Below are positions 14,633 through 36,474 of a stretch of DNA of 64,000 bases, piece after piece. The DNA comes from Acidimicrobiales bacterium. GTDB taxonomy: Bacteria > Actinomycetota > Acidimicrobiia > Acidimicrobiales > VFJN01. Position 1 is the stretch's first letter. Every line of letters starts with the position of its first letter. A program made the position numbers and the translations under genes. The stretch lies in the NCBI GenBank assembly GCA_035316325.1, contig DATHJB010000058.1, positions 10,578 through 74,577 of the forward strand, given 5' to 3'. The notes below the pieces were generated by a model. It was given only the letters and a program-made list of their open reading frames with translations. It made no database searches and was not told where the DNA came from.

Positions 14633-15103
14633 GTGGGGCGTGTGATCGTGCAGGGGCTGGATGGGAAGGTGTGGACCGTCAGGCGGCGGTGGGCGCCGCG
14701 GCTGTTCGGGGACTCGCTCTGGAGCCGCCTCCGGCGTCGGGTCAAGGGCGCGATGCACCGGGGCGAGGCGGTGACGGACATCGGGGACGCGGGCTGCTTC
14801 CTCGACCTGTTCAGCGAGCTCGCCGTGGTGCTGGTGGTCGGCGTGGTCGTCTTCCTGGTGGTGTTCGTCGCGGTGCCGCTGCTGGTCGCCCTGCTCGACG
14901 TCGTGCTCGTGCTGCTCCTCACGGCGGGGAGCGTCGTGGGGCGGGTGGTGTTCCGGCGGCCGTGGACGGTCGAGGCCCGGGCCGACAACGGCACGTCGCA
15001 CACCTGGAAGGTGGTCGGATGGCGCGCCGCGCACGCCCACCGTGACGAGGTCGCCGCCAGCCTCGAGGCCGGCATCGTCCCCGCGGAGTCCGTCGTCGGC
15101 TAG
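14633..15103 (+). CDS. Hypothetical membrane protein (2 TM hairpin flanked by Arg/Trp-rich segments)
   Basis: 156-aa ORF with a GTG start and high GC3. The central hydrophobic block is LAVVLVVGVVVFLVVFVAVPLLVALLDVVLVLLL. Its stop overlaps the nuoN (set 2) stop (CTAG). Confidence 0.5.
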   Translation: MGRVIVQGLDGKVWTVRRRWAPRLFGDSLWSRLRRRVKGAMHRGEAVTDIGDAGCFLDLFSELAVVLVVGVVVFLVVFVAVPLLVALLDVVLVLLLTAGSVVGRVVFRRPWTVEARADNGTSHTWKVVGWRAAHAHRDEVAASLEAGIVPAESVVG

Positions 15104-16641
15104 CCCGAAGCGACGAGGACCGGGACGGCGTCCTGGGCCCAGCCGCTGATGGCGCCGGGCCACACACCGACGCCGATGGTGACGACGAGGCACAGCGTCA
15201 ACGCCACGCCCGCGCCCACAGAGACGGCCACACGGCCACCTTCGGGCGCCGCCTCCTCGTCGCCCATGTACATGGCGACGATGATGCGCAGGTAGAGGAA
15301 CGCCGCGATCACGGCGGCGACCATGGCGACGACCGCCAGCCAGGTCGACCCGGCGTCGACCGCCGCCGTGATCACGTAGAACTTGGCGAAGAACCCGGAC
15401 GTCAGCGGCACCCCGGCCTGGGCGAACAGGAACAGGGTCAACGCCAGCGCCAGCAGCGGGCGCTCCCGGCCGAGGCCCCGGTAGTCCTCCAGCGCGTGGC
15501 GGGCATCGCCCCGGCGGCCGACCAGTGTCACCACCCCGAACGTGCCGGCGACCATGAACGTGTAGGCGGCCAGGTAGAACAGCGCCGCCTGGACGCCGTC
15601 GTCGCTGGCGGCCTGCACACCGACCAGCACGTAGCCGGCGTGGGAGATCGAGCTGTAGGCCAGCATCCGCTTGACGTTCGTCTGCACGACCGCCAGCACC
15701 GAGCCCACCAGCAGCGTCGCCACGGCCAGGCCGAACAGCAGCGGCTGCCAGTCGACCGAGTAGGTCTGGAAGCCCACCACGAACACCCGGATCAGCCCGG
15801 CGAAGCCGGCGACCTTCACGCCGGACGCCATCCACGCCACCATCGGGGTGGGCGCGCCCTGGTAGACGTCAGGCGTCCAGAAGTGGAACGGGACGGCCGA
15901 CACCTTGAAGCCGAGGCCCACCAGCAGCAGCGCCAGGCCGGCGAAGACGAGGCCGTCGTTCTCCAGCACGCTGGTGCTGAACAGGCCCATGATCGTGGTG
16001 AGGTTGGTGGTGCCGGTGCCGCCGTAGATCAGGGCGATGCCGTAGAGCAGGAACGCCGAGGCGAACCCGCCGAGGATGAAGTACTTGAGGCCCGCCTCCT
16101 GCGACGTGACCCGGCGGAGGTGCAGCGCCGCCAGCACGTAGACGGCGATCGACAGGATCTCCAGGCCGAGGAACAGGACGATGAGGTCGTTGGCCTGGGA
16201 CATCACCACGCCGCCCGAGGCCGACAGCAGCAGCAGGACGTAGGCCTCCACGCCGTCGAGGCCCTCACGGCGCAGGTAGCCGTCGATCAGCAGGGCCGAC
16301 AGCACGACGCCCGACGCCAGCACGATCGTGGCGAACACCGAGAAGCCGTCGACGCCGAGGGCGCCGTCGAGGGTGGAGTAGGGGCCCCGGTCGCTGTCCT
16401 GCACCCGGTTCCACAGGTAGATCGCCAGGCCGATGGCGGTGATCGCCGAGGCCGACGTGATCAGGGCGTACGCGCCGGGGAACAGCCGCGACCGCACGAA
16501 CGACGTCAGCAGCATCAGCAGCAGCGCCCCGCCGACCAGGGCGAGCATCGGCCCCAGTGCCCACCAGTCGACGTGCGGCGTGTCGATCGGGGTGGGGTCG
16601 ACGGGTATCGGCTGGTTGAGGATGGCGAGCAGGGCGATCAC
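15100..16641 (-). CDS. nuoN: NADH-quinone oxidoreductase subunit N, set 2
   Basis: 513-aa ORF. Its GTG overlaps the nuoM stop. NuoN motifs are present (FKVSAVPFHFWTPDVYQGAPTP, KRMLAYSSISHAGY). Confidence 0.95.
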   Translation of the reverse strand: MIALLAILNQPIPVDPTPIDTPHVDWWALGPMLALVGGALLLMLLTSFVRSRLFPGAYALITSASAITAIGLAIYLWNRVQDSDRGPYSTLDGALGVDGFSVFATIVLASGVVLSALLIDGYLRREGLDGVEAYVLLLLSASGGVVMSQANDLIVLFLGLEILSIAVYVLAALHLRRVTSQEAGLKYFILGGFASAFLLYGIALIYGGTGTTNLTTIMGLFSTSVLENDGLVFAGLALLLVGLGFKVSAVPFHFWTPDVYQGAPTPMVAWMASGVKVAGFAGLIRVFVVGFQTYSVDWQPLLFGLAVATLLVGSVLAVVQTNVKRMLAYSSISHAGYVLVGVQAASDDGVQAALFYLAAYTFMVAGTFGVVTLVGRRGDARHALEDYRGLGRERPLLALALTLFLFAQAGVPLTSGFFAKFYVITAAVDAGSTWLAVVAMVAAVIAAFLYLRIIVAMYMGDEEAAPEGGRVAVSVGAGVALTLCLVVTIGVGVWPGAISGWAQDAVPVLVASG

Positions 16642-18382
16642 GGCGCAGATCCTTCCTCGGCCTCGGCCTCTTCGAGCTCGACGGGACCGTCGGCGGCGAT
16701 CGGCGGTTGCTCGTAGTCGCTGTTGTCCTCGACGTGGTTGATCAGGCGGTCGACCGCGGGCTCCATCCGTTCGAGGACCGGCTTGGGGTAGACGCCCAGG
16801 AACACGATCAGCCCGAGCAGCGGCGCCAGCACCATGCCCTCACGCCAGCTCAGCTCGGCGAAGCCCTTGTTCTCCTCGTCGGGCTCGCCGTGGAACACCC
16901 GCTGGTAGGCCCACAGCAGGTACACGGCGGCGAGGATCACGCCGGTGGCAGCGACGATCGCCCACCAGCGCCGGGTCAGGAACGACCCCACCAGCACCAG
17001 GAACTCGCCGACGAACCCGTTGAGGCCCGGCAGCCCGATCGACGACATCATCACCAGCGTGAACACCGCCGCGAAGATCGGCGCCACCTTCTGGATGCCC
17101 TTCAGCGCCGAGATCTCGCGGGTGTGGCGCCGGTCGGAGATCATCCCGACCAGGAGGAACAACGCTCCGGTGGACAGGCCGTGGTTGACGTTCTGGAGGA
17201 TGCCGCCCTGCAGGCCCTGGGTGGTGATGGCGAAGGTGCCCAGCACGATGAACCCGAGGTGGGCCACCGACGAGTAGGCCACCAGGCGTTTGAGGTCCTT
17301 CTGCATCGTCGCCACCACGGCGCCGTAGACGATGCCGATCACGCCCAACGTCACCAGGGTCGGGGCGAAGAACGTGGCCGCGTCGGGGAACAGGTACAAC
17401 CCGAAGCGGACCAACCCGTAAGTGCCCAGCTTCAGCAGCACCCCGGCCAGGATCACCGACCCGGCCGTGGGCGCCTCGGTGTGGGCGTCGGGCAGCCACG
17501 TGTGCAACGGGAACAGCGGCACCTTCACCGCGAACGCCAGGGCGAAGGCCAGGAAGATCCAGCGGGCCGCGGTCCAGTCGAACGGGTTGGCGCCGGCGTC
17601 GTTGTCGACGACGGTGCGCGACTCGGCGATCGTCACCAGGTCGAAGTCGAGCTTGGCGTCGCCCGACTGGAGCTCCTCGATCCGGGCCGACAGCGCCGAG
17701 TCGGCCTCGATGTCACCGCTGTTGGCCTGGGCGATCAGCTCCTGCGCCTCGGCCTCGTTGCGGTCGTTCATCGCGTCGCGGTGCAGGAACGCCAGGCTCA
17801 CGATGCCGACCAGCATCAACGCCGAGCCGAACATCGTGAACAGGAAGAACTTGAGCGCCGCGTACACCCGCTTGCCGTAGCCCCAGCCGCCGATGAGGAA
17901 GTACATCGGCACCAGCACGATCTCGAAGAACACGAAGAACAGGAAGAGATCGAGGGCCATGAACACCCCGAGGCAGCCGGCCTCGAGGATCAGCAGCCAG
18001 GCGTAGTACGCCTTCTGGTCGCGTTGTGGGGAGGTGCCGATCAGAGCGATCGGGAAGAGGAGGCCGGTCAGCACCACCAGGAACAGCGAGATGCCGTCGA
18101 TGCCGACGTGCCAGGAGATGCCGAAGTCGGCGATCCACGAGCGGTTGATCTCGAACTGGTAGCCGGCGTCGCCCTTGTCGAAGTCGGCCAGCAGGTAGAG
18201 GCTCAGCGCCCCGGCGCCGACGGAGAACAGCAGCGCCACCAGCCGGTGCAGCTCGGCCCGCCGGTTGGGGACCAGCGCGACGGCCAGCGCCCCGACGGCC
18301 GGCAGCGCCACGAGCGCGGTGAGGATCGGGAAGTCGGGCGCGGCATGTCCCGCGGCCTCGCTCGCCAGGACCAGGGTCGACA

Positions 18383-18383
<1 letters not shown>
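16638..18383 (-). CDS. nuoM: NADH-quinone oxidoreductase subunit M, set 2
   Basis: 581-aa ORF with NuoM motifs (FFVFFEIVLVPMYFLIG, PLFPLHTWLPDAHTEAPT). It has a soluble insert of about 75 aa (RDAMNDRNEAEAQELIAQ...). Its ATG overlaps the nuoL stop. Confidence 0.95.
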
Positions 18384-20287
<1,904 letters not shown>

Positions 20288-20308
20288 GGTTCCTGTTCCC
20301 TCGGTCCC

Positions 20309-20626
20309 TTATCCCTCGAGCAGCGCCAGGTCGTCGGCGGACGCCTCCGGCCGCTTGCGCAGCAGGGCGACGATGATCCCCAGGCCGACCACCACCTCGG
20401 CGGCGGCCACGACCAGCACGAACACCACCACGGTCTGACCGCCGATGTCGTTGAGCATCCGCGAGAACGTCACGAACGTGAGCGTGACCGCGTTGAGCAT
20501 CAGCTCGATGCACATGAACATCACCAGCGGGTTCCGGCGGACCAGCAGGCCGACGGCACCGATGCCGAACAGCAGCGACCCGAGCACCAGGTACCAGGCC
20601 GGCGTGACCTCCAGCGCGGCGAGCAT
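20309..20626 (-). CDS. nuoK: NADH-quinone oxidoreductase subunit K, set 2
   Basis: 105-aa ORF with three TM helices (RRNPLVMFMCIELMLNAV). Its ATG overlaps the nuoJ stop. Confidence 0.95.
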   Translation of the reverse strand: MLAALEVTPAWYLVLGSLLFGIGAVGLLVRRNPLVMFMCIELMLNAVTLTFVTFSRMLNDIGGQTVVVFVLVVAAAEVVVGLGIIVALLRKRPEASADDLALLEG

Positions 20627-21306
20627 CAGGCCTTCACTTCCTCGGACTCGGAGCCGGGCCCGGGTTCTTCGAGCTCGGCCTCGGACGGCGCGTCGTAGAC
20701 GTGCGCCCGGACCTCTGCTCTGTGGATGCGCTCGGCGATCTGCTCGGCGCGCTCCTCCTGGCCCGGGTCGACGATCTCGTCGGCCCGACGGGAGCGGCGG
20801 GCCAGCACCACGGCGCCGACCACCGCGATCACCAGCAGCACGGAGGTCAGCTCGAAGGCGAACACGTAGCGGGTGAACAGGGCGTCGCTGAGGACGTTGA
20901 TGTCGTAGGTGCCCTCGTCGGCCAGCGGGCCGACCCCGCTGGTGATGCCGGTGGCCTCGAAGTCGGTGCTGGCCAGGGCGGCGATCACCAGGCCGACCAC
21001 GCCGATGCCGAGCACCGCGGCGGCGATGCGCTGGCCGCCCAGCGGCTCGACCCGCAGGTCGTCGGCCTGGTCGACGCCCAGGAACATGATCACGAACAGG
21101 AACAGGACGACGATGGCGCCGGCGTAGACGATCACCTGCACGGCGGCCAGGAAGTGGGCCTCCTGGGCGATGAACAGCACGGCGATGCCGAACAGCGTCG
21201 CCACCAGCGACAGCGCCGCGTGCACCGGGTTCTTGCTGGCGACCACCCCGATGGCCCCACCCAGGCAGACCGTGCCGGCGACGCCAAATACGAACAGCTC
21301 GACCAT
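20626..21306 (-). CDS. nuoJ: NADH-quinone oxidoreductase subunit J, set 2
   Basis: 226-aa ORF. The NuoJ N-terminus is present (VVASKNPVHAALSLVATLFGIAVLFI). The C-terminal tail is acidic. Its ATG overlaps the nuoI stop. Confidence 0.9.
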   Translation of the reverse strand: MVELFVFGVAGTVCLGGAIGVVASKNPVHAALSLVATLFGIAVLFIAQEAHFLAAVQVIVYAGAIVVLFLFVIMFLGVDQADDLRVEPLGGQRIAAAVLGIGVVGLVIAALASTDFEATGITSGVGPLADEGTYDINVLSDALFTRYVFAFELTSVLLVIAVVGAVVLARRSRRADEIVDPGQEERAEQIAERIHRAEVRAHVYDAPSEAELEEPGPGSESEEVKA

Positions 21307-21992
21307 CAGTGATGCTCCCCCGCGTGCTCGTCGTCCGCGGGCTCCTCAGCAGGCTCCGGCTCCGACTCGGCAGGTGTGGCCGGGGCGTCGACCGACTGGC
21401 CCTGCTCCGCCGGCTTCACTCCGTAGCCCAGCTCGCCGGCCCAGGCGACGATCCCCTCGAACTCGGCAGCGCCGTTGGGAGCCGTGGCCCGCATCCACGC
21501 CGAGGTGTTGGCCTCGACCGCGTCGATGTCGGTCCAGTCCTCCCAGGGGAGCTGCTTCGGGCGGCCGTCGTCGCCCACCACCAGCTCCGCCTTCGTGTAG
21601 ATGGCGTCGCTGCGGTTGGTGAAGCTGAACTCGAACAGCTTCGACTCGGTGATCGCCTCGGTGGGGCACGCCTCCACGCACAGGTCGCAGTGGATGCAGC
21701 GCAGGTAGTTGATCTCGTAGATGAAGCCGTAGCGCTCGCCCGGCGACACCGGGTTGTCGAGCGGGTTGTCGGCCCCCCGCACGTAGATGCAGCGGGCGGG
21801 GCAGACACCGGCGCACAGCTCGCAGCCGATGCACTTCTCCATCCCGTCCTCGTAGCGGTTCAGCACGTGACGCCCGTGCAGGCGCTCGGGCTTCTCCCGC
21901 TTGCCACCCTCGTTCTTCACGTAGCTGCGGGTGAGGCGCGGGAACTCGAACAGCTTCTTGAACGTGACCCGGAACCCGTCGAGGTAGCCCAT
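21306..21992 (-). CDS. nuoI: NADH-quinone oxidoreductase subunit I, set 2
   Basis: Begins at the internal ATG at 21992 (overlapping the nuoH stop): MGYLDGFRVTFKKLF. The motifs CIGCELCAGVCP and CIHCDLCVEACP are present. A C-terminal extension of about 80 aa ends acidic. Confidence 0.9.
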   Translation of the reverse strand: MGYLDGFRVTFKKLFEFPRLTRSYVKNEGGKREKPERLHGRHVLNRYEDGMEKCIGCELCAGVCPARCIYVRGADNPLDNPVSPGERYGFIYEINYLRCIHCDLCVEACPTEAITESKLFEFSFTNRSDAIYTKAELVVGDDGRPKQLPWEDWTDIDAVEANTSAWMRATAPNGAAEFEGIVAWAGELGYGVKPAEQGQSVDAPATPAESEPEPAEEPADDEHAGEHH

Positions 21993-23236
21993 CAGACGAC
22001 GACCCCCTCGTCGAACGCTTCCTCTTCGGCGTGGCGGGCCTGGCCCACCCGCAGGGCGGCCGTGATCGCCACCCAGCCCAGCACCAGCACACCGAACGAC
22101 GCAGCCACCACGATCCACGGCTCCCAGTCGCGGTCGTCGCCGATGCGGATCGCCGCCAGCAGCAGCAACCACCCCAGCGACAGCGGGATCAGCACCTTCC
22201 AGCCCAGGTTCATGAGCTGGTCGTAGCGGAAGCGGGGCAGCGTGGCCCGGAACCACACGAACGTGAAGAGGAACACCATCAGCTTGAGGAAGAACCACAC
22301 GACGCCCCACAGCCAGGCGGGGCCGACGATGGTCGGGCCGGCGGGGCCACCCAGGAACAGGGTGACGATGATCGCCGACAGCGTGACCGTGTTCATGAAC
22401 TCGGCCATGTAGAAGAAGGCGAAGCGGATCGAGGCGTACTCGGTGTTGAACCCGCCCACCAGCTCCTGCTCGGCCTCCACCAGGTCGAACGGCGGGCGGT
22501 TGGCCTCGGCCGTGCCGGCGATCAGGAAGATCACGAACGGCACGATGCCGGTGGCGATGATGTTCCACCGGGGCAGGCCGAAGTCGCCGAACAGGCCGTA
22601 GCCGCCGCCGGACTGGTGCAGCACGATGTCGTGGGTCGACAGCGACCCGGCCAGCAGCACGACGGCCACCACCGACAGGCCCAGCGCCGCCTCGTAGGAG
22701 ACCATCTGCGCGGACGCCCGCACCGCACCCAGCAGCGGGTACTTCGAGCCCGACGACCAGCCGGCCAGCATCACGCCGTACACCGCGATCGACGACATGG
22801 CCAGCACCAGCAGCACCCCGATCGGCGGGTCGGCCAGCTGCATGTAGGTCTCTTTGCCGAACAGCTCGAACGTGCCCTGCTTCTCGCCGTTGAAGCCGCC
22901 GCCGATGGGGATGACCGAGAACGTGACGAACGCCGGCACCAGCGACAGGTACGGCGCCAGGACGAACACCTTCCGGTCGGCCCGGTCGGGGATCAGGTCC
23001 TCCTTGAAGAACAGCTTGGTGCCGTCGGCCAGCGTCTGGAGCAGCCCGAAGGGGCCGGCCCGGTTGGGGCCGAGGCGGTGCTGCATGTCGGCGATGAGCT
23101 TGCGCTCGAACCAGATCATGAGCATCACCGCGACCAGCAGCAGGGCGAAGACGAACACGGCCTTGAGGACGACGATGCCGACCTCGGCCCAGCCGAAGTC
23201 GCCGACGAGCAGCGGATCGAGAGCGAACAGGTGCAT
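21992..23236 (-). CDS. nuoH: NADH-quinone oxidoreductase subunit H, set 2
   Basis: Begins at the internal ATG at 23236 (overlapping the nuoG stop): MHLFALDPLLVGDFGW... Motifs include RLGPNRAGPFGLLQTLADG and EANRPPFDLVEAEQELVGGFNTEYAS. Confidence 0.9.
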   Translation of the reverse strand: MHLFALDPLLVGDFGWAEVGIVVLKAVFVFALLLVAVMLMIWFERKLIADMQHRLGPNRAGPFGLLQTLADGTKLFFKEDLIPDRADRKVFVLAPYLSLVPAFVTFSVIPIGGGFNGEKQGTFELFGKETYMQLADPPIGVLLVLAMSSIAVYGVMLAGWSSGSKYPLLGAVRASAQMVSYEAALGLSVVAVVLLAGSLSTHDIVLHQSGGGYGLFGDFGLPRWNIIATGIVPFVIFLIAGTAEANRPPFDLVEAEQELVGGFNTEYASIRFAFFYMAEFMNTVTLSAIIVTLFLGGPAGPTIVGPAWLWGVVWFFLKLMVFLFTFVWFRATLPRFRYDQLMNLGWKVLIPLSLGWLLLLAAIRIGDDRDWEPWIVVAASFGVLVLGWVAITAALRVGQARHAEEEAFDEGVVV

Positions 23237-27332: not shown

Positions 27333-27949
27333 GTCGTGGTGCCCGTGTTGTTGCGGGCCAGCCACACCGGCTCGACGTTCACGGTCGGGCGGGCGACCCG
27401 GGCCCGGCGCTCGGGAGCCACCTGCTGGCGCACCCGCGACAGGGTGCCGTGCTTGGGCACCTCGTGGGCCAGGCGGCCGAGCGACAGGTCGTCGAGCAGC
27501 TCCTCGACCTGGTCGTGGCTCACCTTGTGGAAGTAGCGGTAGTTGACCTGCAGGCAGGGCGCCTCGGTGCACGCGGCGATGCACTCGACGTCCTCCAGGG
27601 TGAACTTCCCGTCGGGCGTGGTGCTGCCGGCCTTGACGCCCAGCTTGTCCTCGAGCTGCTCCAGCAGCTCCTCGCCGCCCGTGAGCAGGCAGGAGATGTT
27701 GGTGCACACGTTGACGAGGTACTCGCCCACGGGCTCGCGCTTGAACATCTCGTAGAACGAGCAGGTGCCCAGCACCTCGGCCGGGGTCGCCTCGACGAGC
27801 TCGGCGATGTGGGTCATCGCCTCGTCGCTCACGTAGCCGTCCTGCTCCTGGGCCAGGTGCAGCAGCGGGATCATCGCCGACCGCGCGACCGGGTACCGGT
27901 CGATGATCTCGTGCGCCAGCGTGGTGTTCTCGGGTGAGAAGCGCGCCAT
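27329..27949 (-). CDS. nuoE: NADH-quinone oxidoreductase subunit E (2Fe-2S)
   Basis: 206-aa ORF with a thioredoxin-like ferredoxin fold (VCTNISC...ECIAACTEAPC). Confidence 0.92.
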   Translation of the reverse strand: MARFSPENTTLAHEIIDRYPVARSAMIPLLHLAQEQDGYVSDEAMTHIAELVEATPAEVLGTCSFYEMFKREPVGEYLVNVCTNISCLLTGGEELLEQLEDKLGVKAGSTTPDGKFTLEDVECIAACTEAPCLQVNYRYFHKVSHDQVEELLDDLSLGRLAHEVPKHGTLSRVRQQVAPERRARVARPTVNVEPVWLARNNTGTTT

Positions 27950-27952
27950 GTC

Positions 27953-29293
27953 CTACCTGTCCACCTCGCCCATGATCGGGTCTGCCGAGGAGATGACCGC
28001 CACGGCGTCGGCGATCAGGCCGCCCCGCAGCATGTGGGGAAGAGTCTGCAGGTTCACGAACGACGGGCCGCGGATGTGCATCCGGTAGGGCCGCCCGCCG
28101 CCGTCGCTCACCATGTAGCAGCCCAGCTCGCCGCGGGGGCTCTCGATGGCGCGGTAGGTCTCGCCGGGCGGCACCTTGAAGCCCTCGGTGAAGATCTTGA
28201 AGTGGTGGATCAGCGCCTCCATCGACTCGTCGATGCGGGCGCGGGGCGGCGGCGTGACCTTGCGGTCCTGGATGCGGTAGTCGCCGGGCGGCATCCGGTC
28301 GAGGATCTGGTGCACCAGCTTGATCGACTCGCGGACCTCGTTGAGCCGGATGGCGTAGCGGTCGAAGCAGTCGCCGTAGCTGCCGACCACCACCGCGAAG
28401 TCGAGCTGGTCGTAGAAGAGGTACGGCATGTCGCGCCGCAGGTCCCACTCGACGCCGGTCGACCGCAGGATCGGCCCGGTGGTGCCCAGCGCCTGGGCCT
28501 CCTCCTGGGTGAGCACGCCCACGCCCTGCAGGCGCTCCCGCCAGATGGGCTGGCCGGTCATCAGGAGGTCGTACTCCTCGAGCCGCGGCGGGCTGGCGTC
28601 GATCACCCGCAGCACCTCGTCGCGCCAGCCGTCGGGAAGGTCGGCGGCCACGCCACCGGGGCGGATGAAGTTGTGGTTCATCCGCAGGCCGGTGATCGTC
28701 TCCAGCAGCCGCAGGGTCTCCTCGCGGTCGCGCCAGCCGTAGATCATCATCCCGACCGCGCCGATGTCCATGCCGTTGGTGGCCAGGAACAGCAGGTGCG
28801 ACGAGATGCGGTTCAGCTCGACCAGCAGCATCCGGATCCACTGGGCGCGCTCCGGGACGTCGTCCTGGATGCCGAGCAGCGTCTCGGTGGCCAGCGAGAA
28901 CGCCAGCTCGTTGTGCAGCGGCGAGGCGTAGTCCATGCGGGTGACGTTGGTGCCGCCCTGCAGGTACGTCAGCGTCTCGCCCGTCTTCTCCATGCCGGTG
29001 TGCAGGTAGCCGATGATCGGCTTGCAGCGCAGCACGGTCTCGCCGTCGAGCTCCAGCATGAGGCGCAGCACACCGTGGGTGGACGGGTGCTGCGGCCCCA
29101 TGTTGATGATCATGGTCTGGTCTTCGGCCGGGGCCTCGTCGGCGAGCTTCTGGGCCTCGGTCTCCGACAGGCGCAGCACCGAGCCGAGCTCCCGCAGCAG
29201 CTCGGCGGCGCCGGCACCCTTGCGCGACGTGATCTCCTGGGAGCCTTCGGCGGTGCGGAAGCGCTCCTCGGCGGTGACGGAGTCAGCGGGCAT
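27953..29293 (-). CDS. nuoD: NADH-quinone oxidoreductase subunit D, set 2
   Basis: 446-aa ORF with the motifs MIINMGPQHPSTHGVLRL and a C-terminal DPIMGEVDR. Confidence 0.95.
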   Translation of the reverse strand: MPADSVTAEERFRTAEGSQEITSRKGAGAAELLRELGSVLRLSETEAQKLADEAPAEDQTMIINMGPQHPSTHGVLRLMLELDGETVLRCKPIIGYLHTGMEKTGETLTYLQGGTNVTRMDYASPLHNELAFSLATETLLGIQDDVPERAQWIRMLLVELNRISSHLLFLATNGMDIGAVGMMIYGWRDREETLRLLETITGLRMNHNFIRPGGVAADLPDGWRDEVLRVIDASPPRLEEYDLLMTGQPIWRERLQGVGVLTQEEAQALGTTGPILRSTGVEWDLRRDMPYLFYDQLDFAVVVGSYGDCFDRYAIRLNEVRESIKLVHQILDRMPPGDYRIQDRKVTPPPRARIDESMEALIHHFKIFTEGFKVPPGETYRAIESPRGELGCYMVSDGGGRPYRMHIRGPSFVNLQTLPHMLRGGLIADAVAVISSADPIMGEVDR

Positions 29294-29768
29294 CGGTGAT
29301 CCCCTTGAACTGCACCGGGATGGCCCCGACCGGGTAGTCCTTGCGCAGCGGGTAACCCTCCCAGTCCTCGGGCATGAGGATGCGGCTGAGGTCGGGGTGG
29401 CCGTCGAAGCGGATGCCGAACATGTCGAACACCTCGCGCTCCAGCGCCTCGACGCCGGGGTGCACGTCGAACAGCGACGGGCACGTCGGGTCGTCGGCCG
29501 GGACCTGCACCCGCAGGCGCAGGCGCTCCTTCTTGGTGTGCGACAGCAGCCCGACCACGATCTCGAAGCGCTCCGCGGCGATGCCGTCGGGCAGCTCCCG
29601 AGGGGCCGAGTAGGCGAGGTAGTCGACCGCGGTCAGGTCGACGCACACCCGGAAGCCCTCGTCGTCGCGCAGGTCGAGCACCAGCTTCACCAGCTCGTCG
29701 CGCGACGGGTGCAGCACCGTCTGCCCACGACTCTCGGTCGCGGGCATGCCGTGGACGGGCTCGGTCAC
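29283..29768 (-). CDS. nuoC: NADH-quinone oxidoreductase subunit C, set 2
   Basis: 161-aa ORF. Its GTG overlaps the nuoB stop. The NuoC core is present ([37 protein letters not shown]). Confidence 0.9.
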
Positions 29769-30316
29769 GTCGGGGCCGTCTCTTCGAGTTGGACCCCGGC
29801 GCCACGGCCGGTCGACTCGCGGCGGCGGGTCAGCTCACCCGACTGGATCAGCTCGTGGAGCGTGTTGATGGAGTGGATCAGCGTCTCGGGGCCGGGCGGG
29901 CAGCCGGGGGCGTACACGTCGACCGGGACGATCTGGTCGACGCCCTGCACCAGCGCGTAGTTGTTGAACATGCCACCGGTGCTGGCGCACACGCCCATCG
30001 AGATGACCCACTTGGGCTCCATCATCTGGTCGTGGATCTGGCGCAGCACCGGCGCCATCTTCTGCGAGACGCGGCCGGCGACGATCATGATGTCGGCCTG
30101 CCGGGGCGACGCCCGGAACACCTCCATGCCGAACCGGGCCAGGTCGTAGTGGGCGCCACCGGCACCCATCATCTCCAGCGCGCAGCAGGCCAGGCCGAAG
30201 GTAGCGGGCCACGACGAACGGGCCCGCGACCACTTCACCAGGTCTTCCAGCTTGCCGGTGATGAAGTTGTGGTCGAGGCCTTCGAGGCCCTTGTCCATGT
30301 CCCAGGAGAATCCCAT
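29765..30316 (-). CDS. nuoB: NADH-quinone oxidoreductase subunit B, set 2
   Basis: Begins at the internal ATG at 30316 (overlapping the nuoA stop): [13 protein letters not shown]... Motifs are [20 protein letters not shown] and PGCPPGPE. Confidence 0.9.
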
Positions 30317-30822
30317 CAGGCGGCCTCCTTCCCGGGGGCGTGGGGAGCGTCGTCGCCGAAGGACCGGCCCTCGAGCCCGACCCGACGGACCGTGCTCGAC
30401 GCCGTGCGGTCGGCCGAGACCATCCCCTCGGGCGGCCCACCCCGCGTGAGCCGCTGCGCCTGGTTGACGGGGCCCCACTCGAGGGCGCCCTTGCTCACCA
30501 GGTACAGCAGGCTGACCACCACGGCAGCGGCGAACATCAGCACCTCGACCAGCCCGAAGGCGCCGAGGTTCCGGTAGTTCACGGCCCAGGGGTACAGGAA
30601 GATGATCTCGATGTCGAACACGATGAAGATCATCGCCACCAGGTAGAAGCGCACCGGGAAGCGCTCCGGCGTCTCCCGTCCGGGCACGATGCCGCACTCG
30701 TAGGGCGCCCGCTTCTCCGCGGTGCTGCGGCGCGGCGCCAGCAGCTTCGACGCGATCAGGCTCAACGCCGCGAACAGCACGGCGAGCACGATCAACGCGA
30801 GGACGGGGAGGTACTGGCCCAT
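30316..30822 (-). CDS. nuoA: NADH-quinone oxidoreductase subunit A, set 2, with a C-terminal extension of about 45 aa
   Basis: 168-aa ORF with NuoA motifs ([18 protein letters not shown]). Its start lies only 3 nt after the stop of the preceding membrane-protein gene. Confidence 0.9.
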
Positions 30823-30825: not shown

Positions 30826-31758
30826 TCACACTTTGGCAGGCAAGGGCACCGGCGCGGCGAGATGTTGGCTGAGCCGCCGGTCACGGACGTGCAGCATGTA
30901 GCAGAGCAGCCCGAAGATCGTGCCGGAGAAGAAGGTGAACAGCGCCACGGGGAGGCGCCGGTTGCCGATGTCGCGCTCCATGATCACCGAGATCGTCTCG
31001 GCGCTGGGGTCGCAGGTCGGCGACGGCGGGGGCTGACCGGGCTCGGCCGCCTCGGCCCGCGTCTCGGGCGTGCTGGGGCACACCTGGAGGACCAGGTAGT
31101 GCGGCGGGTGGGTGATCTGCAGCGTCTGGTCGACGCGGTTCGTCACCCGGTCCCACCAGCCGTCGCCGGAGCGCTTGTCCTTGCCGCCGGTGTCGAACGT
31201 GTAGGTCGCGACGTAGTCGTCGGGCGTGTCGATCACGTCGGAGGCGTTGAGGCCGACGTAGGTGCCGTTGGCCAGCTCGGTGTCGACGACCGACTTGGCC
31301 TCGCCGAACTCCTTGTCGGACTCGGCCAGGAGCCGCCACGGGTCGGACACCTCGTCGACGGTGGCCTTGATCTCCTCGAGCTCGGCCGCGGTGGCCACGT
31401 TGAGGGCGTCGGGCGCCGGGAGGCCGGCGTCGAGCGCCGCCGGCACGTCGAGCTCGTGGGCCTTCGGCAGGTTCGACTGGGTGAGGTCGCCGTAGTTGAC
31501 CTCGACGACGTCCCAGACCGGCCCCACGCCGGCCGGCCCGGTGGCCGAGGGCTGGATCCACCAGAACAGTCCCATGATCGTCATCCAGCCGAAGAGGCCG
31601 GTGAGAGCGATGAGGAAACCGAGCCGGTTGCCGAGGTTGGTGCCCAGCAGCAGGTACGCCGAGCCCATCAGCACGGCGACGCCGACGACGACGATGAGGA
31701 CGCCGCGGATCTGCGGGTCCCAGGCGATGCCGGCGATCAACTGGGTGAGAGCGATCAT
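30826..31758 (-). CDS. Orphan membrane protein: three N-terminal TM helices, an extracytoplasmic domain of about 170 aa, and one C-terminal TM helix
   Basis: 310-aa ORF with high GC3. Its ATG overlaps the cytochrome c stop (ATGA at 31755-31758). Its stop is 3 nt before nuoA. I recognised no family. Confidence 0.7.
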
Positions 31759-33089
31759 GGGTTCAGAGCCTCTATCGCCTCGTCGGAGCAGAAGGGGGGC
31801 GTCGGTGCGGCGCTCTCCTCGGCGTCCTCACCGTCGGCGACGGTGGTCGTGGTGGTCGGCGGGGGTGCCACGGTGGTGGGCACCTCGGGGAGCGGCTCCT
31901 GGTTGCCCTGCAGGGTGGCGGCGTAGCGGGCGACGGCGCACACCATCTCGCGTGTGTACTGGCCGTCATCGGCGACCGCTTCGGTGTTGGGGTCGTCGCC
32001 GAAGCCCGGCATCCGTCCGCTGCCCTGGCCGCCGATGCCGAAGCCGAGGCCGTCGATGGAGCCGAGGGAGACGAACTCGGCCAGCTCGTCGACGGAGGCG
32101 AACTTGCGGGGGAGGAGGTCGTCCAGCGGGGGTGCGATGCCACCGCCCGAGCCGTCGTGGTAGTCGGTGTAGGGCCCGAGCAGCGCCCCGGCCGACGCCG
32201 GCTCCACAGCCCCGTCGCCCTCGGTGATCATCGACCAGCCCCGCGTGTGGCAGCGGCCGCACGCGTAGGCCCCGCTGGCGAACCCGGTCTCACGGCCCAG
32301 GTTGAACAGCGCCTCACCGGTGGCCAGCGAGTCGTAGTCGATGTTCTTGGCGGCCTCGGCCACCTTCTCGGGGTCCTCGAGGTCGTCGCCCTGGAGCAGG
32401 CCCAGGTCGGCGACCAGCTCGGCCGCGACGGCCTCCTGCGATTCCTCGGAGCTCAGCTGGACCGACGCCAGGTAGTCGATGACGTTCTCGATCTCCTGGG
32501 TGGTCCGCGGGCCACCGCCCTCCGCGCCCCAACCGACCATCGGCGTGCCCGGCCGGCCGTAGGTGATGATGTTGAACACCTCGTCACGGCTGAACCGCAG
32601 CAGCACCGTGTTGAGCGCCGGCGCCCGCCACTGCAGGTTGGCGACGAACCCGCCGTTGGCGTCGAACAGCGTGTAGGGCGCCTGGCCGCCGGTGCCCTCG
32701 GGGCCGTGGCAGTTGGCGCACTGCGACCCCTCCTCGTACTGCTCGAGGCCCCGGTCCGTGAACTTGCGCAGCATGTCGGCCTCGGCGCCCTCCTGGCGAC
32801 CGGGCTCGGCCAGCCAGTAGAGCGGCAGGCCCACGGCGACGATGCCCAGCAGGACCACGCCCGACGCGAGCGTGCGGTTGAGCTTGGTGGTCTCCAGCTG
32901 CTCGTCGTCGTAGTAGGGCTTGCGGTTGGGCGCCAGCTCGATCTCGGAGCCGACCTCGTCGCGCCCCGCCCGCAGGTTGGCGATCACGTAGGCGACGAAG
33001 CCGATCGTCGTCAGCACCGCGATGACGGCGCCGACTGCCTGCACCGTGCTGGCGGCGAGCACGGTGGTGGTCTCGATAGCGATCGACAT
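31755..33089 (-). CDS. Membrane-anchored di-haem cytochrome c (QcrC-like subunit)
   Basis: 444-aa ORF with two CxxCH motifs (CANCH, CGRCH) and two N-terminal TM helices. The C-terminus is Thr/Pro-rich. Its ATG overlaps the Rieske stop. Confidence 0.85.
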   Translation of the reverse strand: MSIAIETTTVLAASTVQAVGAVIAVLTTIGFVAYVIANLRAGRDEVGSEIELAPNRKPYYDDEQLETTKLNRTLASGVVLLGIVAVGLPLYWLAEPGRQEGAEADMLRKFTDRGLEQYEEGSQCANCHGPEGTGGQAPYTLFDANGGFVANLQWRAPALNTVLLRFSRDEVFNIITYGRPGTPMVGWGAEGGGPRTTQEIENVIDYLASVQLSSEESQEAVAAELVADLGLLQGDDLEDPEKVAEAAKNIDYDSLATGEALFNLGRETGFASGAYACGRCHTRGWSMITEGDGAVEPASAGALLGPYTDYHDGSGGGIAPPLDDLLPRKFASVDELAEFVSLGSIDGLGFGIGGQGSGRMPGFGDDPNTEAVADDGQYTREMVCAVARYAATLQGNQEPLPEVPTTVAPPPTTTTTVADGEDAEESAAPTPPFCSDEAIEALNP

Positions 33090-33958
33090 CAGTGGCCGCC
33101 CGACACGCAGTGAGGACCTTGGGCCTCCTGGCCCGTGGTGTTGGTTCCGATCGGCGGGCCGTTGATGACCGTGCCGGTGTCGACGATCAGGGTGTCGCCG
33201 TCGACCGTCATCGCGAAGCGGTCCATCCCGCGGGGGGCGGGACCACCCTTCTTCTCACCGACCTGGTTGTACTGCGAACCGTGGCAGGGGCACTCGAACC
33301 ACTGCGACGTGACGCAGCTCGGCACCCGGCAGCCCAGGTGGGGACACTTCTGGTAGAGCGCCACGACGCCGTGCTCCATGCCGTTGAGCTCCTGCGGGGT
33401 GTACACCGCCCGGGCCTTCTCGAGGGCGATCCCGGGGTACGGGGTGACCCACATGCGGCCCTCGGGGTAGTAGGCGAACCCTTGGCCCTCGACGATCTTG
33501 GCCTCGATGTCGGAGATCTTGCCGACCCGGATCTGGGAGCCGAAGCCGCCCTTGCTCTCCGTGTAGAGGAAGGCGAGCGACGCCGCACCGAAGCCCGCGA
33601 GGCCCACCCCGAACAGCCCGACGATGGAGCGGTTGAAGAACTGGCGGCGGGTCACGCCGATCATCTCGGCGTCGGGCGGCACCCACGGCACCAGCTCGGC
33701 CGGGGTCTCCTCGGGGACGGCGAGCCCGCCGCCCTTGCGCTCCAGCGCCGCGGCCCGCTCGATCTCGCGGCCGGTGACCGGCGGCGCGTCGTCGTCGGCC
33801 AGCGGCGTGACAGGACCACGGTCGCGCTTGGCGGTCTCGGGGCTGAGCTGGCCGATCGCGGCGTCGGTGTCACGCCGGCGGGACGACGCGAACAACAGCA
33901 GCGCCGCCAGCACCACCAGCACGGGGACGGCGATCAGGACGATGGTGGTTGTGCTCAT
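33089..33958 (-). CDS. Rieske [2Fe-2S] protein
   Basis: 289-aa ORF with both Rieske boxes, CPHLGC and CPCHGS. There is an N-terminal TM helix plus a second hydrophobic segment (RRQFFNRSIVGLFGVGLAGFGAA, Tat-like). Confidence 0.9.
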   Translation of the reverse strand: MSTTTIVLIAVPVLVVLAALLLFASSRRRDTDAAIGQLSPETAKRDRGPVTPLADDDAPPVTGREIERAAALERKGGGLAVPEETPAELVPWVPPDAEMIGVTRRQFFNRSIVGLFGVGLAGFGAASLAFLYTESKGGFGSQIRVGKISDIEAKIVEGQGFAYYPEGRMWVTPYPGIALEKARAVYTPQELNGMEHGVVALYQKCPHLGCRVPSCVTSQWFECPCHGSQYNQVGEKKGGPAPRGMDRFAMTVDGDTLIVDTGTVINGPPIGTNTTGQEAQGPHCVSGGH

Positions 33959-33965
33959 CTCTCGC

Positions 33966-34769
33966 TCACAGCTCGAAGAAGATGCCGTCGTTCCAGGGGA
34001 AGACGAAGTTGAAGCCCGGACCCCGGAAGAACGAGCCGATCATCACCAGCACCGCCCAGAACATCAGGAAGAGGGTGAACAGCGAGATCGCGAACTTGCG
34101 GTCTTCCGGCTTGTGGGACGGGTTGCGGTCGGTATAGGGCGCGAAGATCAGCGCCACCAGGCCCAGGCCCGGGATGGTCACACCGGCGACCATCGGGTGG
34201 AACATGGTCAGCAGCTCCTGCAGGCCCAGGAAGTACCAGGGCGCCTTCGACGGGTTCGGCGTCTGGTTGAAGTTGGCCAACTGCAACAGCGGGGCGTTCA
34301 CGAAGATCGAGAACACCAGCAGGAACGCCGTGCAGGACAGGGCGGCCACGAACTCGACGGCCAGCAGGTGGGGCCACACGTGGACCTTGTCCTGCGGGGT
34401 GGCCTTGATGTCCTGGATCGAGCCCGACTTGACGACCGTCAGCAGGCGCTGGGTGTGGCCGCCGGGGCCGGCGGCGAGCGGTGGTGCCGCGGTGCCGGCT
34501 GCTGCGGGGGCTGCGGTCGCCACGGCGGTGGCGGTGCCGGTGGCCTGACCGCCGGCGCTCGCGCCGGGTCCGCCTTCGGCCCGGGCCCGGGCGGCCTTCG
34601 ACCGCTCGAGCAGCGACGCGGGGATGCGGCTCTCGGCCTCGCTGGGCGCGGCGTCACCACCGCCTCCCGCGGGGGGCGCGGCGCCACCGCTGTCGGGGGC
34701 CTTGTTGGCCTCGGCCTTGCGGCGAGCCTCTTCGGCCCGCTTGCGGAGGTGTTCGGGAATCTCTGCCAT
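33966..34769 (-). CDS. Cytochrome b C-terminal half (b6f subunit IV-like) with an N-terminal extension of about 110 aa
   Basis: 267-aa ORF. The Qo-loop motif reads KAPWYFLGLQELL, in the position of PEWYF, and is followed by 3 TM helices. The N-terminus is MAEIPEHLRKRAEEARRKAEA followed by an Ala/Gly-rich linker. Confidence 0.85.
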   Translation of the reverse strand: MAEIPEHLRKRAEEARRKAEANKAPDSGGAAPPAGGGGDAAPSEAESRIPASLLERSKAARARAEGGPGASAGGQATGTATAVATAAPAAAGTAAPPLAAGPGGHTQRLLTVVKSGSIQDIKATPQDKVHVWPHLLAVEFVAALSCTAFLLVFSIFVNAPLLQLANFNQTPNPSKAPWYFLGLQELLTMFHPMVAGVTIPGLGLVALIFAPYTDRNPSHKPEDRKFAISLFTLFLMFWAVLVMIGSFFRGPGFNFVFPWNDGIFFEL

Positions 34770-34793: not shown

Positions 34794-35585
34794 TCAGAGC
34801 GGGCCGGAGATGCCGCCGTCCTTGCGGACACGCCAGAAGTGGATGGCCATGAAGATCACGATCACGAAGGGCAGCAGGAGCACGTGGAGCACGTACCAGC
34901 GCAGCAGCGTGTCGGAGCCGATCTCGGCACCGCCCAGCAGGACGAAGCGCACCTGGTCACCGAACACGGGCGAGTAGCCCATCATGTTGGTGCCCACGGT
35001 GACCGCCCACAGGGCGAGCTGATCCCATGGCAGCAGGTAGCCGGTGAAGCTGAGCAGCAGCGTCAGCAGCAGCAGGATGACGCCGATCACCCAGTTGAAC
35101 TCGCGGGGTGGCTTGTAGGCGCCGTGGTAGAAGACGCGGGCCATGTGCAGGAACACCGACAGCACCATGAGGTGCGCGGCCCAGCGGTGCATGTTCCTGA
35201 CCAGCAGGCCGAAGGTGACCGACGTCTGCAGCGTGTAGATGTCGTCCCACGCCTGCGCCGCCGTCGGCCGGTAGAAGAACATCAGGAAGATGCCGGTGAT
35301 CGTGAGGACGATGAACAGGAAGAAGCTGAGCCCGCCCAGGCAGAGCGTGTAGCTCACCTTCACGGCGTGCCGCTTCACCTTCACCGGGTGCAGGTGGTAG
35401 AGCACGCTGTTCATGATCACGTAGGAACGGTTCCGAGGGCTGTCCGTGTAGCCCTTGCGGAAGATCGAACCCGGCCGGAAGATCGAGTTCCAGACCTGTG
35501 AGCCCTGGATGTTGCCGGGAAGGTCGCGCATCGCCTTCTCGGCCCGCTCCCGGAGGGGCGGCTTCGATTCCATCGTCTTGGCCAT
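34794..35585 (-). CDS. Cytochrome b6-like protein (N-terminal four-helix half of cytochrome b)
   Basis: 263-aa ORF. The helix B histidines lie in RNMHRWAAHLMVLSVFLH. The helix D histidines lie in VLHVLLLPFVIVIFMAIH, with 14 residues between them. The CLGG cysteine is present in helix A (SYTLCLGGLSFF). Confidence 0.9.
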   Translation of the reverse strand: MAKTMESKPPLRERAEKAMRDLPGNIQGSQVWNSIFRPGSIFRKGYTDSPRNRSYVIMNSVLYHLHPVKVKRHAVKVSYTLCLGGLSFFLFIVLTITGIFLMFFYRPTAAQAWDDIYTLQTSVTFGLLVRNMHRWAAHLMVLSVFLHMARVFYHGAYKPPREFNWVIGVILLLLTLLLSFTGYLLPWDQLALWAVTVGTNMMGYSPVFGDQVRFVLLGGAEIGSDTLLRWYVLHVLLLPFVIVIFMAIHFWRVRKDGGISGPL

Positions 35586-35598
35586 TACTCCGTCTCAC

Positions 35599-36015
35599 TC
35601 ATCCCAGACGCATCCCGTAGCCGTAGCCGTGCGTGTTGGTTCGCTGGTGCGAATCGCCCGTCGCCACCGGGTCGCCGACCTTACCGAGGATGATCACCCC
35701 GGTCGGGCACCGGTCGACGCACAGGGCGCAGCGTGTGCAGACGTCGTCGTCGATGACGAAGACGACGTGGTCGGAAGGATCCTCGCCCGGAAGCTCGGTC
35801 TCGACGGCCTCGTCGATGGCCGTCGGGCTGACCATGTGGATGCACTTCCACGGACAGATGTCGACGCAGCCCTCGCACATGATGCACTCGGACTGGTCGA
35901 TGTGGATGAACTGCTTCGGCTTGACCGCCTTGGAGAGCCAGGCCGCGTCGACCTCCTGGAGGACGTAGTCCTCCCGGAACTCCGGCATCGGGGGGTTGGC
36001 GTCGTTCTTGGCCAT
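35599..36015 (-). CDS. 2x[4Fe-4S] ferredoxin-domain protein
   Basis: 138-aa ORF with the motifs CIMCEGCVDICP and CTRCALCVDRCP. There is no TM helix. It lies 13 nt upstream of cytochrome b6. Confidence 0.85.
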   Translation of the reverse strand: MAKNDANPPMPEFREDYVLQEVDAAWLSKAVKPKQFIHIDQSECIMCEGCVDICPWKCIHMVSPTAIDEAVETELPGEDPSDHVVFVIDDDVCTRCALCVDRCPTGVIILGKVGDPVATGDSHQRTNTHGYGYGMRLG

Positions 36016-36033
36016 GGTCGTGACCTGCCCCGC

Positions 36034-36474
36034 TCAGCCCTTCCGAACCAAGGGCCGGCCGTAGCGCGAGGCCGGCACCACTGCCGCCCGCTCCTTGGAG
36101 CGGTCCTGCCAGAAGGCCCAGACGCCGAGGTGGAGGGCGATGCCCAGGCCGTAGACACCCATCACGATGGTGTCCTTCAGAGCCGCGTAGTTGACGTCGA
36201 GGGGCCACCAGCTCAGCCACTCCTGGCCGAACAGCGGCTGGCCCGACTGCGCCAGGAACTTGTCGGTGCCCCAGTTGAGCTCGTTGGTCGCCCACTGCAG
36301 CCACTGGTTGGGGATGACCCCGTACCACCAGAAGAAGACCAGGAAGGCGTAGGTGGCCGCGAACATCGCCTCGCCCCACGACAGCGGGGTGCCCATCGGC
36401 CGGCGCTTGCCCACGACGAACACCACGCCGACAGCCAGCAAGCCGAGCACTAGGGATGTGATGAAGGCGACCAC
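36034..36474 (-). CDS. Orphan Trp-rich membrane protein (3 TM), first gene of the bc/nuo operon
   Basis: The ORF track extends the ORF to 36555. However, codons 36475-36555 have many A/T-ending codons (10 of 26). The GTG at 36474 is preceded by GAGGAG at 9-nt spacing. The protein begins VVAFITSLVLGLLAVGVVFVVGKRRP. Confidence 0.65.
   Translation of the reverse strand: MVAFITSLVLGLLAVGVVFVVGKRRPMGTPLSWGEAMFAATYAFLVFFWWYGVIPNQWLQWATNELNWGTDKFLAQSGQPLFGQEWLSWWPLDVNYAALKDTIVMGVYGLGIALHLGVWAFWQDRSKERAAVVPASRYGRPLVRKG

Follow-up and report, generated by a model that had tools for sequence, protein, structure and literature searches.

In the 64-kb stretch of DNA analysed here, which will be called the window (positions 10,578 to 74,577 of contig DATHJB010000058.1, assembly GCA_035316325.1, from an Acidimicrobiales bacterium), the genes for a b6-type complex III and for complex I form a single string of 21 minus-strand genes, which runs from 36474 to 15100 with spacings between −11 and +24 nt. 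We consider it probable that this string is the core respiratory operon of the Acidimicrobiales, controlled by the repressor Rex, in which one primary promoter would serve 21 coupled genes encoding complex I and the b6-type complex III. This proposal is built on the gene content and order of the string, its junctions, the motifs of its products, its conservation among related genomes, and the enrichment and position of an operator-like palindrome upstream of its first gene, all of which were observed directly.

Organization of the gene string

The order of the genes in the string is TM146 (a 146-aa orphan membrane protein), ferredoxin, cytochrome b6, subunit IV, Rieske protein, dihaem cytochrome c (cytC), TM310 (a 310-aa orphan membrane protein), and NuoA to NuoN. 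An earlier reading, made from the sequence alone and referred to below as the sequence-only reading, had described 21 consecutive minus-strand coding sequences between 36474 and 15100 with no gap above 24 nt, and every one of these open reading frames (ORFs) is present where it had placed them. The window has a GC content of 70%, and GC content at the third codon position was used to tell genuine genes from shadow ORFs. Pfam and NCBIfam matches assign 19 of the 21 products, leaving the 146-aa and 310-aa proteins without a family. These matches bear out the gene identifications of the sequence-only reading, including the non-canonical split of cytochrome b into b6 and subunit IV, and the three extra proteins that it had seen interleaved with the respiratory subunits (TM146, the ferredoxin, and TM310) occupy the positions that it had given them. 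The main nuo cluster encodes the full NuoA-N set, the NADH module NuoEFG included (Pfam). An apparent lack of nuoC was dismissed, as the 231-aa ORF at 29110-29805 is an out-of-frame artefact, and the genuine nuoC, of 161 aa, lies within the same region (Table 1).

The junctions from TM146 through nuoA measure, in order, 18, 13, 24, 7, −1, −4, and 3 nt, and those within nuoA-N measure −1, −4, −11, 3, −4, −4, −1, −1, −1, −1, 21, −1, and −4 nt. Most junctions are thus as previously reported, those of nuo being overlaps or gaps of at most 21 nt, and two corrections are needed: the Rieske gene and cytC share a 1-nt TGATG overlap and not an ATGA, and the 161-aa nuoC overlaps nuoD by 11 nt. The statement that no intergenic room exists between the complex III-like genes and complex I is upheld by the measured junctions, with overlapping stop and start codons on both sides of TM310. 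Gene 1 starts with the GTG at 36474, is preceded 9 nt upstream by a GAGGAG Shine-Dalgarno sequence, and has homologues of 137-146 aa. Scans for sigma-70 promoters and for terminators, based on simple consensus sequences, revealed nothing above chance inside the string, and no Rfam family matched in the window.

At the other end of the string, two small plus-strand ORFs, at 14633-15103 (156 aa) and at 14307-14621, exhibit good coding statistics and belong to no family. The first of them is convergent with nuoN and their stop codons overlap by 4 nt, so that the 3' end of the operon offers no space to a terminator.

The complex III resembles cytochrome b6f

Judged by the sequences of its subunits, the complex III encoded here is b6f-like and not of the actinobacterial bcc type. 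The haem ligands of b6 follow the b6 spacing, with H-x13-H in helix B and H-x14-H in helix D (HRWAAHLMVLSVFLH and HVLLLPFVIVIFMAIH in the translation). The protein also carries the CxGG haem ci motif in the form LCLGG, the Cys of which probably binds haem ci. Subunit IV holds the Qo motif APWY (KAPWYFLG), not P[E/D]WY, and two IPxHLLxR[SA] repeats at its N-terminus. The Rieske protein exhibits the motifs CPHLGC and CPCHGSQY, and starts with an N-terminal helix, followed by a TRRQFF motif resembling a twin-arginine translocation signal and by a second helix. Among solved structures, the closest to b6 are the cyanobacterial and plant b6 proteins (E = 4e-49), mycobacterial QcrB being a far weaker match, while the Rieske protein is closest to PetC of b6f. 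The proteins of the window fall far short of all three NCBIfam models for the actinobacterial bcc complex: b6 scored 124.8 bits against the unsplit QcrB (cut-off 500), the Rieske protein 24.5 bits against the three-helix QcrA (cut-off 275), and the dihaem cytochrome c 20.9 bits against QcrC (cut-off 200).

Acidimicrobiales b6 proteins (P0031 and P0042) are designated by NCBI as 'selenite/tellurite reduction operon b-type cytochrome ExtP'. They receive this name because the cut-off of the ExtP hidden Markov model is passed; the b6 of the window reaches 309.7 bits where 290 are required, its N-terminal extension of about 56 residues lying outside the model. Subunit IV fails the NCBIfam ExtQ model (53.4 against a cut-off of 150), and the porin, rhodanese, and multihaem genes of the Ext context are absent from the annotated window (Pfam). 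The ExtP name is therefore a systematic and misleading over-annotation.

The clade defined by the APWY motif was described by Kao and Hunte in 2014 from Deltaproteobacteria, Chloroflexi, Nitrospirales, Planctomycetes, Actinobacteria, and some deep-branching Firmicutes (PMC4122944). Ilumatobacter coccineum, from the Acidimicrobidae, is one of the actinobacteria that are listed there as having a split cytochrome b, with sequences placed in the APWY or PEWY-cyt c clades (PMC4122944). No homologue with an APWY motif had been characterized, and the binding of haem ci was unverified for the clade (PMC4122944). The split b6 and the APWY clade have consequently been known since 2014 (PMC4122944), whereas no paper describing the linkage to nuo was found in the literature searched, most subscription journals being outside its scope.

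Three known systems are instructive for comparison. Like cytochrome b6f and the b6c complexes of Firmicutes (Bacillus QcrABC and heliobacterial PetCBDA), the complex described here has a split b6/subunit IV, the H-x14-H spacing, the CxGG Cys, and the Rieske motif CPCHGSQY. It differs from them in the Qo motif (APWY instead of PEWY or PDWY), in having a separate membrane-anchored dihaem protein instead of cytochrome f or a subunit IV-cytochrome c fusion, in the extra 2x[4Fe-4S] ferredoxin and the two orphan membrane proteins, in the order Fdx-b6-SUIV-Rieske-cytC, and in the attached nuo genes. With the APWY clade, in which ExtOPQ from Geobacter is included, it has in common the APWY motif, the split b6 with CxGG, and the passing of the ExtP cut-off. 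However, Geobacter holds a porin, multihaem cytochromes, and a rhodanese, none of which is present here, and neither a linkage to nuo nor one to the orphan proteins has been described in that clade (PMC4122944). Finally, QcrCAB of the III2IV2 supercomplex (Mycobacterium and Corynebacterium) comes from the same phylum, has the same menaquinol-oxidising role, and also uses a dihaem cytochrome c in place of a soluble one. In contrast, QcrB is there an unsplit protein of 540 aa, and no ctaE lies adjacent to the genes in the window. In the characterized actinobacteria, qcrCAB is not known to be linked to nuo.

Conservation of the string in the Acidimicrobiales

Thousands of close relatives exist for cytochrome b6, and those with a name are from the Acidimicrobiales. 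The gene string was compared by tblastn, using the proteins of the window, in the best 80 of about 600 candidate loci (one genome per species; b6 identity 83-92%), the order being read as far as each contig extends. All 80 loci belong to the Acidimicrobiales or Acidimicrobiia, except for a few that are evidently mislabelled metagenome-assembled genomes (MAGs). Cultured organisms are represented by Salinilacustrithrix flava and Aquihabitans sp. G128; the loci from MAGs comprise some that are assigned to Iamia, Microthrix, Ilumatobacter, and sponge-associated lineages.

This comparison, a genome-neighbourhood search of the kind that the sequence-only reading had suggested, returned the same gene order in every locus, with junctions that are mostly tight as well. 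Order and strand are collinear in 80 of 80, and the arrangement across cytC-TM310-nuoA is kept in the 69 loci (69/69) that span it. The gap between TM310 and nuoA has a median of 5 nt in these 69 loci, and in 62 of them the stop codon of TM310 lies at most 60 nt from the first aligned residue of NuoA. A gap of 213 nt at this place in locus L004 was rejected as an artefact of start-codon choice, the actual gap being 5 nt. The split into b6 and subunit IV is kept in all loci. Median identities across the 80 loci are 87% for b6, 80% for the ferredoxin, 59% for the Rieske protein, 41% for the dihaem cytochrome c, and 35-40% for TM310 and TM146.

Departures from the full string concern its distal part. 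In Salinilacustrithrix flava (L007, 16320-19465) and in L010, the string stops after nuoD, an ABC transporter coming next in L007; the complex III genes thus stay joined to nuoABCD where nuoE-N have moved away. In the related locus L013, a 162-nt spacer separates nuoD from nuoE and contains a Rex-type site of its own (TTGTGCAAGGATTCACGA, at 17927), which looks like a lineage in which nuoE-N has become a separate Rex-controlled unit.

A putative promoter and a Rex operator-like palindrome precede gene 1

Alignment of the upstream region from 13 genomes revealed three conserved islands amid diverged DNA: ATGTGAA, GTGCTAAACC, and a palindrome that abuts the ribosome-binding site. The first of them is either half a Rex site or a −35-like element, and the second would be an extended −10 element; an exact GTGCTARACC occurs only once in the window. 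Transcription is likely to start near 36539, about 65 nt before gene 1 and inside the interval 36480-36560 where the sequence-only reading had expected it.

The palindrome, ATGTGAGCGATTTCACGA, resembles a Rex operator (ROP). In a search for TTGTGAAN4TTCACAA with at most three mismatches, it is the sole ROP-like match in the window (three mismatches), 0.16 being expected per window. Of 76 related loci, 49 have such a site in the 250 nt ahead of gene 1, where 0.015 would be expected, and 51 of the 81 ROP-like matches in 1.38 Mb of these loci fall upstream of gene 1. In none of 69 loci does one precede nuoA at the same threshold.

The window also encodes Rex itself (57771-58511), identified by the NCBIfam equivalog model with 348.8 bits (cut-off 226) and adjoining hemA, hemC, and cobA-hemD; no ROP-like site with three or fewer mismatches precedes rex in the window. 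In Streptomyces avermitilis, Rex represses nuoA1-N1 (directly), cyd, atp, and rex-hem, and its footprinted operators include TTGTGACCTGCTTCACAT and TTGTGATACGGTTCACGA (PMC5355995). The Streptomyces regulon (nuoA-N, cydABCD, atp, and rex-hemACD) resembles the situation described here in the type of 18-bp palindrome, in the location of rex beside hemA/C/D, and in nuo as the target (PMC5355995), which is here a predicted one, but the operator in the window precedes seven complex III-type genes that lie ahead of nuoA. With a candidate operator in the leader and a rex gene in the window, the cluster has the sequence features of a member of the Rex regulon. As this site, classically a regulator site of nuo, precedes the complex III genes, it is the best indirect indication available that this promoter also serves nuo, and, if the operon is one transcript, the predicted control by Rex would extend to complex III. 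The transcription as one unit put forward by the sequence-only reading thus finds support of a comparative kind, in the conserved order and in a putative promoter and Rex-type operator that are present before gene 1 and lacking before nuoA.

The ferredoxin and the two orphan membrane proteins

The ferredoxin holds two CxxCxxCxxxCP motifs and neither a signal peptide nor a transmembrane segment, from which a cytoplasmic location follows. Its conservation across the 80 loci is second only to that of b6, equals that of NuoB, and lies far above those of the Rieske protein and the dihaem cytochrome c; such a median identity (80%) is the profile of a core subunit and not that of a diffusible carrier. 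The N-terminus of b6 lies on the cytoplasmic side in b6f, and the N-terminal extension of b6 could offer a docking site for the ferredoxin. A clean in-frame fusion of the ferredoxin to the N-terminus of b6 (377 aa, protein P0072) occurs in normal gene order on one metagenomic contig (L081, 1600-2733). The other three of the four predicted fusions (P0003, P0012, and P0077) were discarded as frameshift artefacts with Arg/Pro-rich out-of-frame linkers, and Microthrix-like loci hold ferredoxin and b6 as separate genes. A correspondence of the ferredoxin to ExtO from Geobacter was ruled out, ExtO being the Rieske protein (PMC5877670), and no 4Fe-4S ferredoxin has been reported in the Geobacter ext genes (PMC5877670).

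TM146, which is present in 78 of the 80 loci, has an invariant C-terminal tail (PASRYGRPLV) and 246 homologues, none of them with an assigned name. TM310 begins with a helical hairpin, continues with an alpha/beta domain of about 195 aa that would be extracytoplasmic, and closes with a C-terminal helix. It belongs to a family of 884 clusters at 50% identity, and its gene separates cytC from nuoA in 69 of 69 loci. Neither protein matches Pfam or NCBIfam, nor do ten distant relatives of TM310 match Pfam. No significant profile match in the PDB was found for either, and confident AlphaFold2 models (predicted local distance difference test, pLDDT, of 82 for TM146 and 78 for TM310) gave no Foldseek fold match in the PDB. 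Across the 80 loci, no proteins of the cluster are less conserved than these two. Their position suggests, most simply, that both are supernumerary subunits or assembly factors.

Neighbouring genes

The control region of 157 nt upstream of gene 1 is common to a divergent plus-strand gene for a membrane-anchored monohaem cytochrome c. In about 68 of 78 loci this cytochrome gene sits beside gene 1, and it is almost always oriented the other way. A motif, (T)E[IV]PEHLL[KR]R[SA]xxxR, is found in one copy at the cytoplasmic N-terminus of this cytochrome and in two copies at the N-terminal end of subunit IV. The IPEHLLxRS peptide common to both proteins may serve in docking or in targeting. Beyond the cytochrome, a plus-strand gene at 37544-38800 encodes a member of the geranylgeranyl-reductase family, closest to MenJ with 343.6 bits (below the cut-off of 700), which is found beside the cytochrome c gene in 35 loci. 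By this similarity, its product is probably a menaquinone side-chain reductase, encoded beside an operon that uses quinol.

A second nuo cluster of 11 genes, without the NADH module nuoEFG, lies on the minus strand at 3-10105, about 5 kb downstream of the main nuoN. Between the two nuo clusters are found genes for an extracytoplasmic function (ECF) sigma factor (11751-12599) and for a helix-turn-helix (HTH)/DUF5753 regulator (13227-14132). On the other side of the string, rex heads a block of haem-biosynthesis genes (44284-58511), which is interrupted by a branched-chain amino acid ATP-binding cassette (ABC) transporter (46712-51721).

Table 1. Coordinates, in the 64-kb window, of the gene string, its putative control elements and neighbouring features
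Feature	Position	Strand	Remarks
Putative promoter	36546-36577	-	ATGTGAA at 36577-36571; extended −10 GTGCTAAACC at 36555-36546
ROP-like palindrome ATGTGAGCGATTTCACGA	36488-36505	-	In the leader, 14 nt before the start of gene 1; overlaps the Shine-Dalgarno sequence
TM146	36034-36474	-	Trp-rich membrane protein, 3 helices; gene 1
Ferredoxin	35599-36015	-	138 aa, 2x[4Fe-4S]; Fer4 families (Pfam)
Cytochrome b6	34794-35585	-	263 aa; PF00033 at 6e-47
Subunit IV	33966-34769	-	267 aa; PF00032
Rieske [2Fe-2S] protein	33089-33958	-	289 aa; PF00355
Dihaem cytochrome c (cytC)	31755-33089	-	444 aa, membrane-anchored; PF13442 and PF00034; CANCH, CGRCH
TM310	30826-31758	-	Orphan membrane protein; ATGA overlap with cytC; 3 nt before nuoA
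nuoA-N	15100-30822	-	14-subunit complex I; Pfam for every subunit, NCBIfam also for A-C
nuoA	30316-30822	-	
nuoB	29765-30316	-	
nuoC	29283-29768	-	
nuoD	27953-29293	-	
nuoE	27329-27949	-	
nuoF	25941-27332	-	
nuoG	23236-25944	-	
nuoH	21992-23236	-	
nuoI	21306-21992	-	
nuoJ	20626-21306	-	
nuoK	20309-20626	-	
nuoL	18383-20287	-	
nuoM	16638-18383	-	
nuoN	15100-16641	-	
Monohaem cytochrome c	36632-37450	+	272 aa, membrane-anchored; PF00034; divergent, 157-nt control region common with gene 1
(T)E[IV]PEHLL[KR]R[SA]xxxR, copy 1	36683-36721	+	Kept in every locus examined (L001-L080)
(T)E[IV]PEHLL[KR]R[SA]xxxR, copy 2	34722-34760	-	Kept in every locus examined (L001-L080)
(T)E[IV]PEHLL[KR]R[SA]xxxR, copy 3	34587-34625	-	Kept in every locus examined (L001-L080)
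nuoA2	9740-10105	-	
nuoB2	9191-9691	-	
nuoC2	~8420-9194	-	
nuoD2	7252-~8440	-	
nuoH2	6209-7255	-	
nuoI2	5640-6194	-	
nuoJ2	4985-5647	-	
nuoK2	4641-4985	-	
nuoL2	2486-4630	-	
nuoM2	890-2461	-	
nuoN2		-	Runs off the window
Sirohaem-synthase-like gene	57135-57767		
hemA	55882-57159		
hemC	54974-55882		
cobA-hemD	51612-53465		
hemB	45577-46557		
hemL	44284-45540		

Proposed mechanism and alternative explanations

From these observations we infer co-transcription, the binding of Rex, the roles and topology of the subunits, and the path of electrons. A primary promoter about 65 nt upstream of gene 1 would be gated by the NADH/NAD+-sensing repressor Rex, bound to the palindrome in the leader, and would drive 21 translationally coupled genes. 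Two complexes would be produced: a cytochrome b6f-like menaquinol:cytochrome c oxidoreductase and a 14-subunit NADH:menaquinone oxidoreductase. The former would comprise b6 (with haems bL, bH, and probably ci), the APWY subunit IV, the b6f-type Rieske protein, the anchored dihaem cytochrome c, the cytoplasmic ferredoxin, TM146, and TM310. When NADH rises, Rex would leave the DNA and the segment of the respiratory chain from NADH through menaquinone to cytochrome c would be made in fixed proportion, the divergent membrane-anchored cytochrome c, under the same control region, passing the electrons on to a terminal oxidase.

Several observations weigh against this proposal or restrict it. Spacers of 39-110 nt with GC-rich hairpins separate TM310 from nuoA in L008 (15088-15128), L011 (7897-8008), L012, L045, and L059, and in L008 the hairpin before nuoA is followed by TTTT and is terminator-like. 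These spacers may act as attenuators or as mRNA-stabilising structures that tune the ratio of the complex III (bc) genes to nuo; together with the Rex-type site before nuoE in L013, they indicate that sub-operonic control exists in places. Among the 76 loci, 27, many Ilumatobacteraceae MAGs among them, are without a ROP-like site at three or fewer mismatches. The core TGTGA-N6-TCACA is also the consensus of CRP/GlxR, and the regulator could therefore be a CRP-family protein. Consensus scans are weak in DNA with a GC content of 70%, and promoters inside coding sequence are possible. That the ferredoxin, TM146, and TM310 would belong to the complex is suggested only by their position and conservation. 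Finally, reverse operation has been proposed for the APWY clade (PMC4122944).

The string might instead be read as several transcripts, with internal promoters in the coding sequence of cytC or TM310, processing, or both giving rise to separate bc and nuo mRNAs, and with adjacency reflecting co-regulation or shared ancestry. Internal promoters are common in operons of 21 kb, and the hairpin spacers before nuoA in five loci (one of them, in L008, terminator-like with its run of T), the ROP before nuoE in L013, and the detachment of nuoE-N in L007 and L010 would all fit such an arrangement. It is nevertheless rather unlikely in view of the median TM310-nuoA gap of 5 nt, the stop/start overlaps on both sides of TM310, the scans of the window, in which no promoter- or terminator-like site rose above chance, and the lack of a Rex-type site before nuoA in 69 loci even though nuo is a classical target of Rex.

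A further step beyond the single Rex-controlled operon, and a literal version of the supercomplex proposed in the sequence-only reading, would be a physical machine of complex I and complex III, bridged by TM310, TM146, or both, in which the ferredoxin would act as an n-side iron-sulfur wire from the peripheral arm or cytoplasmic donors to haem ci/bH. The translational coupling of TM310, which is never absent, to both cytC and nuoA speaks for it, and the retention of the bc genes with nuoABCD when nuoE-N leave, the conservation of the ferredoxin at the level of NuoB, and the IPEHLLxRS peptide that subunit IV shares with the divergent cytochrome c, a hint at a common cytoplasmic docking partner, point in the same direction. 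Yet the orphan proteins bear no similarity to any chain of the solved supercomplexes or to known bridging or assembly proteins, a median identity of 35-40% is unusual for a precise interface, and adjacency of genes is neither necessary nor sufficient for a supercomplex. The physical machine, like the shared assembly line that the sequence-only reading had named beside it, is purely inferential, and we regard such a machine as improbable. Equally doubtful is its more specific form, in which the ferredoxin would be a stoichiometric n-side subunit seated on the N-terminal extension of b6 by haem ci and would join complex I, with TM310 and TM146, in one NADH-to-cytochrome c machine.

Alternatively, the complex of b6 and ferredoxin might not be an ordinary quinol:cytochrome c reductase, and might employ the ferredoxin as an electron gate on the n-side, either bifurcating menaquinol oxidation so as to yield low-potential reductant or injecting ferredoxin electrons via haem ci into the pool, possibly in conjunction with the second nuo cluster. 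A bifurcating role has been proposed for those anammox Rieske/cyt b complexes that carry additional FeS or NAD(P) modules. The haem ci motif CxGG coincides here with a dedicated 2x[4Fe-4S] protein, a nuo cluster devoid of the NADH module is available in the window, and the APWY clade is uncharacterized and has been proposed to operate non-canonically (PMC4122944). Against it, the cluster also encodes a normal Rieske protein and a dihaem cytochrome c; the adjoining complex I is a full NADH-oxidising one and the regulator would be an NADH sensor, which fits plain aerobic respiration; and the operon encodes no partner enzyme. This explanation is the one to which we would give the least credence.

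Implications for the respiratory chain of the Acidimicrobiales

Soils, freshwater, oceans, sponges, and activated sludge all harbour abundant Acidimicrobiales, whose respiratory chain has so far been read as one of ordinary complexes I-IV. The data presented here depict a complex III that is b6f-like, belongs to an uncharacterized clade, and is accompanied by an extra ferredoxin conserved like a catalytic subunit of complex I. Complex III and complex I are encoded in one tightly coupled gene string, apparently under an NADH sensor. The use of the name ExtP in the public genomes of this order should be regarded as a systematic mis-annotation.

With cultured hosts at hand, the string offers a clean test system for asking whether the fusion of operons reflects an association of complex I with complex III in bacteria, what role haem ci and an n-side iron-sulfur partner have in a non-photosynthetic b6-type complex, and how the stoichiometry of two large membrane complexes is set. 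Should the ferredoxin prove to be docked, the Acidimicrobiales would possess a respiratory b6-type complex with a built-in iron-sulfur gate to the cytoplasm, a natural and stable version of the long-debated connection between ferredoxin and haem cn of the photosynthetic b6f. Should the two complexes turn out to form a single machine, it would be the first bacterial unit of complexes I and III hard-wired at the operon level.

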